In this document: one piece after another, positions 31,898 through 33,260 of the stretch
Position numbering within the stretch: the first letter of the stretch is position 1
Layout: each line of letters begins with the position of its first letter
IMG/VR virus record: IMGVR_UViG_3300037294_000399
Coordinates: 1-64,000 of that record
DNA length: 64,000 nucleotides
DNA from: a virus
Strand: one strand, 5' to 3'
The notes under the pieces: model-generated
The model's input: only the letters and a program-made list of their open reading frames with translations
Told to the model about the DNA's origin: nothing
The model's database searches: none
Translations under genes and position numbers: made by a program

Positions 31898-31999
31898 ATG
31901 AAAACAACAACGACATATCAAACGCAATATCAACCGAAGGGCGGGAAGCCTCAAGGGAAGACTGGGTATGTCATGTTTGAAGACGTGATATTAGGATAA
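31898..31999 (+). CDS. Attenuator leader peptide 3 (Lys/Thr/Tyr/Gln/Pro/Gly): MKTTTTYQTQYQPKGGKPQGKTGYVMFEDVILG
   Basis: Residues 2-24 use only K,T,Y,Q,P,G; downstream tRNAs are Pro, Gln, Tyr, Thr, Gly, Lys. Confidence 0.88.
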   Translation: MKTTTTYQTQYQPKGGKPQGKTGYVMFEDVILG

Positions 32000-32024
32000 A
32001 ATTATAAACGTATAATTTTTACAC

Positions 32025-32057
32025 AACCCAGTCAGAGAAATCTAGGCTGGGTTTTTT
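32025..32057 (+). terminator. Attenuator terminator 3
   Basis: aacccagtcaga-GAAA-tctaggctgggtt + T run; alternative pairing gactgggt 31960-31967 with acccagtc 32026-32033. Confidence 0.85.
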
Positions 32058-32064
32058 ATTTTAT

Positions 32065-32140
32065 CTAGGTGTGGGAAAGTTGGTAATCCGCATGGTTTGG
32101 GACCATGAGACCGCAAGTTCGACCCTTGCCACTTAGACCA
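32065..32140 (+). tRNA. tRNA-Pro(TGG)
   Basis: catgg-ttTGGga-ccatg, CCA. Confidence 0.92.
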
Positions 32141-32198
32141 GAAGAGACTGTTACCAATTCATAGAACTACATGTTGTGAGCGTAGAATTGGAAATTAT

Positions 32199-32272
32199 CG
32201 AGTAGTATAGGAGCGGTTTATCTAACCTACCTTGGACGTAGGAGCACGCTGGTTCAAATCCAGCCTATTCGA
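32199..32272 (+). tRNA. tRNA-Pro(TGG), divergent
   Basis: cctac-ctTGGac-gtagg. Confidence 0.8.
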
Positions 32273-32276
32273 CTAA

Positions 32277-32348
32277 TGAAGAATCGTCTAATTAATAAGA
32301 CAAACACGTTAAAGTGTTAAATGTAGGTGTGAATCCTACTTCTTCTAC
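32277..32348 (+). pseudogene. Degenerate tRNA
   Basis: Cloverleaf outline with 6-nt loop aacac-gttaaa-gtgtt and altered T loop. Confidence 0.45.
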
Positions 32349-32356
32349 TAATATAA

Positions 32357-32427
32357 TGTCGTATAGTGTAATGGCAGCACGTCTGGTTTTGAGCCAGAAG
32401 ATATAGGTTCGACCCCTGTTATGACAA
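32357..32427 (+). tRNA. tRNA-Gln(TTG)
   Basis: tctgg-ttTTGag-ccaga; U1-A72. Confidence 0.88.
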
Positions 32428-32558
32428 CAAAACGAGATAACCCTTTTGAGTGGGGCGGTACTAAGAGTAATTAACTTAGTTTGTGGGTTCGAATTCTATT
32501 ACCTCCACGATATGCTGTTAGATTTTAAGCTTTATTGGTAAAGGTAAAAAATTATTAT

Positions 32559-32641
32559 TGGACGGTGGCCGAGTGGTTAAAGGCGACAGACTGTAAATCT
32601 GTTCTCGTGAGAGTACGTGGGTTCGAATCCCACCTGTCCAA
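32559..32641 (+). tRNA. tRNA-Tyr(GTA)
   Basis: acaga-ctGTAaa-tctgt, variable arm. Confidence 0.93.
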
Positions 32642-32703
32642 CTGTGAAATAGGTGAGATTAAATAAATGGGTCTGAGGGAGTCCATTAAGGAACCCTCTC
32701 CAT

Positions 32704-32777
32704 GCTCTGTACGCACGAAAGGTGGTGCACTGGATTTGTAACCCAGAATAGAATCGGTTCGATTCCGATACAGAGCT
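32704..32777 (+). tRNA. tRNA-Thr(TGT)
   Basis: ctgga-ttTGTaa-cccag; acceptor gctctgt/acagagc. Confidence 0.85.
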
Positions 32778-32825
32778 CAATAAATAAGTATAATACGCAT
32801 TGAAATATACGTATTATACCAAAAT

Positions 32826-32899
32826 GCGGATATAGCTCAATTGATTAGAGCACTAGCCTTCCAAGCTGGGGGTTGTGGGTTTGAGTCCCACTATCCGCT
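32826..32899 (+). tRNA. tRNA-Gly(TCC)
   Basis: ctagc-ctTCCaa-gctgg. Confidence 0.92.
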
Positions 32900-32973
32900 C
32901 TAGTTTAAAAATCGTTGCATGTAGCGAAGATAGTCAAGCTAACTATCACCCAGTTAAGCGATTCTGGGTAAAT

Positions 32974-33036
32974 GCGAGAGTAGCTCAGTGGTAGAGCATC
33001 TGGTTACCAACTAGAGGGTCGTTGGTTCGAACCCCA
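32974..33036 (+). pseudogene. Truncated tRNA-Gly(ACC)
   Basis: gcgagag start, tctgg-ttACCaa-ctaga, 3' acceptor strand missing. Confidence 0.6.
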
Positions 33037-33188
33037 CAAATGTATATTACAATATACAAAAAGATATAAAAACAGTAAAATGTATATTATAATATACAAA
33101 ACAAAATGATTATGAAAACAACAAAATTGGTATAATAGAACATTATAAATACCTTCATTGGTTCAAATCCAATCGGGGGTACTAAAAA

Positions 33189-33260
33189 TCCCTCGTAGCA
33201 AACTGGCGTAGGCAATAGACTTTTAATCTATGGGGCTGGGTTCGACTCCCAGCGGGGGAA
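33189..33260 (+). tRNA. tRNA-Lys(TTT)
   Basis: ataga-ctTTTaa-tctat. Confidence 0.9.

Follow-up and report, generated by a model that had tools for sequence, protein, structure and literature searches.

What decides when a phage that carries its own transfer RNA (tRNA) genes makes the tRNAs they encode? Why phages carry such genes at all is debated, the choice lying between codon supply and escape from tRNA-targeting immunity, and to our knowledge the regulation of phage tRNA genes is essentially not known. The question is posed in concrete form by a locus at 31,898 to 33,260 in the first 64,000 nucleotides (nt) of IMG/VR virus record IMGVR_UViG_3300037294_000399, a stretch which we analysed as a whole, call the window, and number throughout from its first letter. 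Here a short open reading frame (ORF), an intrinsic terminator and seven tRNA genes follow one another on the + strand. An initial annotation, made from the sequence alone, had read the ORF as the leader of an attenuator serving the tRNAs downstream, and our analysis supports it, given an ORF that stays open, a conserved composition and array, compensatory pairing, an array devoid of its own promoter, and paralogous classes. We put the probability that the locus is a ribosome-mediated (leader-peptide) transcription attenuator gating a phage tRNA operon at about 0.8. On this evidence, production of the tRNAs would probably be confined to times when ribosomes are slow at codons for the six amino acids of the leader.

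Composition is the first line of evidence. As that annotation had proposed, 23 consecutive codons of the leader (codons 2–24; coordinates of all features are given in Table 1) encode only Lys, Thr, Tyr, Gln, Pro and Gly (K/T/Y/Q/P/G). These six make up 0.314 of the residues in phage ORFs of at least 120 amino acids, a frequency at which 23 in a row would arise with p = 2.6e-12, and the next-longest run of the same set, with all six frames of the 96,307-bp genome considered, is 9. Each of the six amino acids is present at least twice within codons 2–18. Downstream, ARAGORN and Rfam recover exactly the annotated inventory of intact genes, two for tRNA-Pro and one each for Gln, Tyr, Thr, Gly and Lys, and find no further intact species in the array, which also holds several degenerate tRNA-like pieces; the tRNA-Thr(tgt), as called by relaxed ARAGORN, has one A-C mismatch in its anticodon stem. 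A related claim, that unusual G/C-ending codons in the leader mark sensitive stall codons, survives in part. These codons are indeed rare, with shares of their synonymous families in phage ORFs of 0.09 (ACG), 0.06 (CCG), 0.17 (AAG), 0.04 (GGC) and 0.10 (GGG); the same codons, however, coincide with helix-forming segments of the RNA, so that selection for stalling is not the sole explanation of their use.

Table 1. Features of the leader unit and of the tRNA array that follows it (window coordinates).
Feature	Position	Strand	Basis or remark
Promoter, presumed Bacteroidota type	31804–31834	+	TTG, ~20 nt, then -7 box TAnnTTTG at 31827–31834
33-nt 5' element, common to all leader cassettes	31831–31863	+	overlaps -7 box and likely transcription start
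Small optional hairpin of the 5' untranslated region, 3-bp stem	31872–31883	+	position matched in relatives
Leader ORF, 33 codons	31898–31999	+	stop codon TAA at 31997–31999
Regulatory block, codons 2–24 (23 codons), only K/T/Y/Q/P/G	31901–31969	+	composition
Strand 1 (anti-antiterminator)	31913–31919	+	predicted pairing with 31965–31971, RNAalifold consensus
Central hairpin within block, GGC/GCC stem	31939–31951	+	invariant in 13/13 sequences
Strand 2, 5' strand of antiterminator	31960–31967	+	exact complement of 32026–32033
Hairpin A, 10 bp, stacked on antiterminator stem	31968–31991	+	in distal ORF; compensatory pairs
Hairpin B, 9 A-T pairs, third arm of antiterminator junction	31998–32019	+	overlaps stop codon
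Intrinsic terminator, 12-bp bulged stem (32025–32053), GAAA loop, T-tract 32052–32057 (T6)	32025–32057	+	dG -16.5 kcal/mol
Strand 3	32026–32033	+	5' arm of terminator
Strand 4	32045–32052	+	3' arm of terminator
tRNA-Pro(tgg)	32065–32140	+	ARAGORN, Rfam; begins 7 nt past T-tract
tRNA-Pro(tgg)	32199–32273	+	ARAGORN, Rfam
tRNA-Gln(ttg)	32357–32428	+	ARAGORN, Rfam
tRNA-Tyr(gta)	32559–32642	+	ARAGORN, Rfam
tRNA-Thr(tgt)	32704–32778	+	Rfam 42.7 bits (32704–32777); relaxed ARAGORN; Thr(tgt) at same place in relatives
tRNA-Gly(tcc)	32826–32900	+	ARAGORN, Rfam
tRNA-Lys(ttt), final array gene	33189–33261	+	ARAGORN, Rfam

The correspondence between leader and array recurs well beyond this genome. Searching viral and metagenome contigs for the pattern of the 5' element yielded 57 distinct units, a few of them cut by contig ends; 48 are complete, with both leader and terminator, and fall into four classes, of which class 3, that of the present locus, has 13 members. 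(One match to the pattern, L063, was set aside as chance; it sits inside a cellular membrane-protein gene.) Class 1 leaders draw on L/V/C and precede tRNAs for Cys, Val and Leu; class 2 leaders draw on F/D/A/E, with tRNAs for Phe, Glu, Asp and Ala; class 3 pairs K/T/Y/Q/P/G with Pro, Gln, Tyr, Thr, Gly and Lys; and class 4 pairs I/N/H/M/S/W/R with His, Trp, Ser, Ile, Met, Asn and Arg. The phage clade has four paralogous cassettes, the present unit among them, whose leader sets combined comprise all 20 amino acids, and one near relative of the genome carries all four (L005, L007, L027). If the comparison is restricted to the 36 units that have four or more tRNAs, arrays of the same class serve a share of leader residues 2–21 that is 0.52, 0.54, 0.75 and 0.79 in the four classes, against 0.01–0.22 for arrays of other classes; when codons are matched to anticodons the corresponding values are 0.43–0.77 and at most 0.17, and in 31 of these 36 units the leader contains every specificity present among the tRNAs of the array. 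A metagenome unit (L041:470) is an exception to this match, with a class-1 (L/V/C) leader before Val, Phe, Val, Phe, Asp, Ala and Asp; class-1 and class-2 arrays appear to be fused here behind one leader. The 96-kb record itself, about 27% complete, yielded no class-4 unit and no call for a tRNA of His, Trp, Ile, Met, Asn or Arg.

Conservation of the reading frame is apparent in the same collection. The frame of the leader is open in all 13 class-3 units and in all 48 units overall, and the +1 frame is closed by stop codons in every one of them. Relatives differ by synonymous third-position changes in the ORF, and the one codon insertion among close relatives is in frame. Both the six-amino-acid composition and the six-species array are conserved across the class, so that the homologous loci bear out the initial annotation on one of the points, conservation of the ORF and of its composition, by which it had proposed to judge the leader.

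Transcription of the array, too, appears to lead through this leader. Upstream of it lies a promoter which we take to be of the Bacteroidota type; the 9-mer around its -7 box occurs 16 times in the window, always on the + strand, against 0.42 expected, and between 31700 and 33400 the motif TAnnTTTG has a single + strand occurrence, at 31827. A scan of that interval for the motif revealed no recognisable promoter on the + strand for the class-3 array itself, and since the sole promoter motif stands upstream of the leader with none before the array, the 1.2-kb array would be transcribed only through the terminator. The 33-nt element which overlaps this promoter heads every homologous unit in all four leader classes; its three sites in this genome (31831, 17310 and 18291) are each followed by a short ORF, then a terminator and a cluster of tRNA genes, and its first 21 nt have three exact genome copies, each ahead of a leader. 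In about half of the homologous 5' untranslated regions (UTRs), a 4–6 bp hairpin with differing stem sequences occupies the place of the small optional hairpin seen here. The element or the UTR hairpin might act in pausing, in RNA stability or in the binding of a protein.

The gate itself is a bulged intrinsic terminator which a simple terminator scan missed, because of the bulge in its stem, and which RNAfold finds. The assertion that a segment of the leader pairs perfectly with the 5' arm of this terminator is correct: strand 2 (31960–31967) and strand 3 (32026–32033) form a perfect 8-bp duplex with a free energy (dG) of -15.5 kcal/mol and a z-score of -4.1 relative to shuffled leaders. Each of the 13 class-3 units has a strong terminator (dG -12.9 to -16.5) whose 5' arm finds its best partner within leader codons 18–25, mostly 21–24, giving duplexes of -11 to -16.5 kcal/mol (z -1.4 to -4.1). 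When RNAalifold is given the segment from strand 2 to strand 3 alone, stem 2:3 closes a junction containing hairpin A. Two pairs of this stem switch between two class-3 subgroups, one from CG to UA and the other from UA to CG, and a third runs through GC, GU and AU; 95.6% of the cells in the stem 2:3 alignment are paired, against 30–44% with a slid partner, and the covariation score exceeds that of all 500 shuffles. The inner stem of the terminator covaries as well, and strand 4 changes in step with strand 3 (strand 4 was compared by anchored extraction, since MAFFT had misaligned the 3' arm of the terminator in three sequences; A1, A3). Classes 1 and 4 share this architecture, built there from strands that are unrelated in sequence and show their own compensatory changes, and in three classes the terminator 5' arm is complementary to the ORF. 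Folds forced into the antiterminator and the terminator have energies of -44.1 and -45.4 kcal/mol, respectively, values near enough to suggest that the RNA is a near-bistable switch.

Another view of the hairpin would deny it any regulation: as a terminator of fixed and partial leakiness, or as a processing signal, it would hold tRNA at a constant level. The tRNA genes do follow directly (at 5–15 nt from the T-tract in 8 of the 13 class-3 units), so that some read-through is needed on any account. We nonetheless find this view scarcely credible, as it leaves the conserved and covarying antiterminator, the bistable energetics and the codon match unexplained.

A regulated gate, by comparison, suggests the following sequence of events. 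RNA polymerase would start at the promoter and a ribosome would translate the 33-codon leader behind it. Were even one of the aminoacyl-tRNAs for Lys, Thr, Tyr, Gln, Pro and Gly scarce, the ribosome would stall within codons 2–18, blocking the pairing of strand 1 and freeing strand 2, which, stacked with hairpins A and B, would capture the 5' arm of the terminator as it emerges. With the terminator barred, RNA polymerase would continue into the seven tRNA genes. Under fast decoding, the advancing ribosome (codons 19 to stop) would mask strand 2 and unfold hairpins A and B, or strand 2 would re-pair with strand 1 behind the ribosome; the terminator would then form and transcription would end at 32057. 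One shortage among the six would suffice to switch the unit on, and the tRNAs produced would relieve the stall. Since it would sense a lack of the same tRNAs that it produces, the unit would act by negative feedback as a homeostat for decoding capacity. Folding predictions fit the order of events in that the best fold as the transcript lengthens is 1:2, then 2:3, then 3:4. With the ribosome masked as a 28-nt footprint, stem 2:3 is able to form when codons 2–18 occupy the aminoacyl site, and unable to do so at codons 19–28. Anatomy, conservation, covariation and the match of leader to array are features of the sequence, and it is from these that we infer translation of the leader and read-through dependent on stalling.

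What would the natural signal be? It is established for trp and his attenuation that a stalled ribosome cannot distinguish a missing tRNA from an uncharged one, and the same anatomy might therefore respond, via charged-tRNA levels, to amino-acid starvation or a general slowing of translation, and serve as a timer of infection stage or starvation; we found no common biosynthetic or defence link among the six amino acids. Extra tRNA does not relieve amino-acid starvation, however, so the response would be futile, whereas feedback on tRNA supply is well suited to the exact codon-to-tRNA match in four classes. Genes of RNA-repair type, moreover, flank the tRNA region. In Salmonella, lowered tRNA-His in hisR mutants derepresses the his attenuator, which indicates that attenuators of this kind respond to tRNA level. 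A signal of starvation or slow translation is unlikely in our estimation, and shortage of tRNA, rather than of amino acids, would be the natural input to the attenuator.

Several findings weigh against the attenuator as outlined, or against parts of it. The pairing of strands 1 and 2, which is present in the co-transcriptional fold up to 31975 and weak in the equilibrium model, is invariant on both sides in 13 sequences, so that covariation speaks neither for nor against it. Compensatory events within class 3 are few (~2–3, or roughly one two-clade split and one further position), and we regard the covariation there as real but shallow. In equilibrium folding the antiterminator also forms without a ribosome, or with a ribosome at the stop codon, and under masking the ribosome-free, ribosome-at-stop and stalled states are alike, with stem 2:3 forming in each before strand 4 exists; termination under fast translation would consequently rest on kinetics or sterics. 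Strand 2, furthermore, ends 29 nt before the stop codon here, as against 8 nt in class 1, and a ribosome at the stop would leave it uncovered. On the coding side, about 7 of 16 replacements in the block fall outside the six-residue set, and strict wobble leaves three leader codons, GGC, CCT and ACT, without a matching anticodon among the tRNAs of the window; tRNAs that would read these codons, Gly(acc), Gly(gcc), Thr(agt) and Pro(agg), are present in relatives. A tRNA for His has joined two class-3 arrays (L032, L035) whose leaders lack a His codon. In class 2 the antiterminator is weak, and the terminator is usually followed by a second promoter, found in 8 of 10 class-2 units and lying in the window at 18548–18579, between the terminator and tRNA-Phe, where it is again of Bacteroidota type; given both features, the class-2 array may be only partly under attenuation. 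Finally, the peptide sequence of the leader is well conserved within class 3, as would befit a functional micropeptide too.

Two further explanations could be built on these points. In one, the fold would be set by a protein, an uncharged tRNA or temperature, rather than by a translating ribosome, and the ORF would be incidental; the invariance of the 1:2 pairing and of the central hairpin would suit it, as would a conserved 33-nt element and optional UTR hairpin to which no role is assigned. Such a switch does not predict that the ORF is open in every unit with the +1 frame always closed, that close relatives differ by synonymous changes and an in-frame codon insertion, or that composition fits the downstream tRNAs in four classes. 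Across the whole window, moreover, cmscan matched tRNAs only, with no hit at gathering score to the Rfam leader families (Thr_leader, His_leader, Leu_leader, Trp_leader and others), to the T-box or to any other riboswitch, and we judge this possibility very unlikely. In the other, the within-class conservation of the peptide would reflect a micropeptide gene with its own terminator, the tRNAs arising by leaky read-through and the composition match as a by-product. We give this explanation almost no credence, considering that each of the four peptide classes, unrelated to one another, fits the array behind it and that jointly they cover 20 amino acids, that the terminator arm is complementary to the ORF in three classes, and that the distal leader peptide is wholly different between class-3 subgroups which retain the RNA pairing.

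Among the relatives, tRNAs with A at position 34, which is unusual for bacteria and phages, are recurrent: Gly(acc), Thr(agt), Pro(agg), Leu(aag) and Tyr(ata) genes of this kind occur at L005:8268, L029:5283, L032:3578 and L020:5481, and in L044 and L036 (Leu aag). If A34 were edited to inosine, such tRNAs would read the leader codons GGC, ACT and CCT. A close relative (L027:3032) carries a tRNA with the amber-reading anticodon CTA, labelled Pyl by ARAGORN, upstream of its class-4 unit.

How does the attenuator compare with known systems? Like thr (Thr, Ile), ilvGMEDA and ilvBN (Leu, Val, Ile), trpL, hisL, leuL and pheL, it has a short leader ORF, translated in those systems, in which regulatory codons are grouped, and these stand for several amino acids in the multivalent cases; as in the enterobacterial attenuators, the 5' arm of the terminator can pair alternatively with the distal leader, an upstream strand, predicted in the phage unit, could sequester that segment, and the controlled genes lack a separate promoter. 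It differs from them in controlling tRNAs instead of biosynthetic enzymes, in apparently sensing six amino acids at once, in an antiterminator that is a three-way junction with the stop codon 29 nt beyond strand 2, and in being phage-borne, in four paralogous copies which divide the 20 amino acids among them and match no Rfam leader family. Leader-peptide attenuation of a gene of the translation apparatus is known from Escherichia coli, where the pheM leader governs pheST, encoding phenylalanyl-tRNA synthetase; this system shares with the phage unit its feedback on decoding of the sensed codons, but is cellular, controls a synthetase and senses a single amino acid. T-box riboswitches likewise couple tRNA status to terminator or antiterminator read-through upstream of translation-related genes. 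They bind uncharged tRNA directly, however, have no ORF and control synthetase or amino-acid genes, whereas specificity in the phage unit appears to reside in a conserved ORF.

On the side of function, the passages drawn on here from two accounts of phage T5 describe tRNAs that act against anticodon nucleases (PMC10264068) and a tRNA-Lys that neutralises PARIS (PMC11464382). The present array resembles those of T5 as a phage-borne set that would replace depleted or unsuitable host tRNAs; the same passages mention no sensing or feedback control, whereas this array would carry its own sensor. That phage tRNAs can rescue infection from tRNA-cleaving defences, as those passages indicate, provides a plausible use for such a sensor (PMC10264068; PMC11464382). 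In full-text literature searches no published account was found of tRNA genes controlled by a leader peptide, whether for phages or for other systems; one paper mentions a tRNA operon in another context only (PMC3082878). The class-3 unit is a real and conserved feature, and leader-peptide attenuation applied to tRNA genes would be new as far as these searches show.

The wider setting of the locus adds some observations. The source record, of 96,307 bp and 31% G+C, has an estimated completeness of 27%, from which a very large phage genome is probable, and blastn of 31700–33300 against cultured-phage records returned matches at the level of tRNAs only and no close cultured relative; the array probably belongs to an uncultured giant phage. 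Among public sequencing runs, none of RNA was listed as containing the locus, and the one run that contains it in full is of DNA from a salt lake, which may be where this sequence originated. A gene for an RlaP-type RNA-repair nucleotidyltransferase (14620–15813) precedes the tRNA region and one for a 2H phosphoesterase (LigT/Acb1-like; 2'-5' RNA ligase; 33757–34302) follows it, and these might be RNA-repair or anti-defence partners of tRNA supply. Inside tRNA array 2, a 163-amino-acid ORF (18790–19281) with an N-terminal helix-turn-helix and an HNH-like C-terminal motif adjoins tRNA-like fragments, and is probably a homing endonuclease. Array 3 holds degenerate or broken tRNA-like pieces at 32277–32348, 32440–32510, 32981–33037 and 33100–33188; among these are a piece whose 'anticodon' has two bases, a remnant resembling a T arm that precedes the Lys gene, and a partial match where relatives have Gly(acc). 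Relaxed ARAGORN links 32981–33037 with 33149–33188 over a 109-nt insert, and in the insert that seemingly breaks the Gly(acc)-like tRNA lie two copies of a 22-nt imperfect palindrome (33040–33061 and 33080–33101), which may represent a small mobile element or a nuclease target.

Considered together, the four cassettes might form a code-wide sensor of decoding capacity, which would measure the host tRNA pool per codon block and switch on only those replacement tRNAs that are needed. We advance this idea tentatively, at slightly less than even odds. Anticodon nucleases that cleave host tRNAs, or the phage's own shut-off of its host, are examples of what might cause that pool to fail. The unit of ~230 nt is compact and directly testable, and might be used as a natural biosensor that reports when defence nucleases deplete tRNA. 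If the attenuator functions as proposed, then tRNA genes can be placed under leader-peptide attenuation, a single attenuator can integrate six amino acids at once, and phages monitor decoding capacity. If the four cassettes do act as a code-wide sensor, then theirs would be the first tRNA genes autoregulated through the ribosome, and the phages that carry them would possess a built-in sensor for counter-defence.

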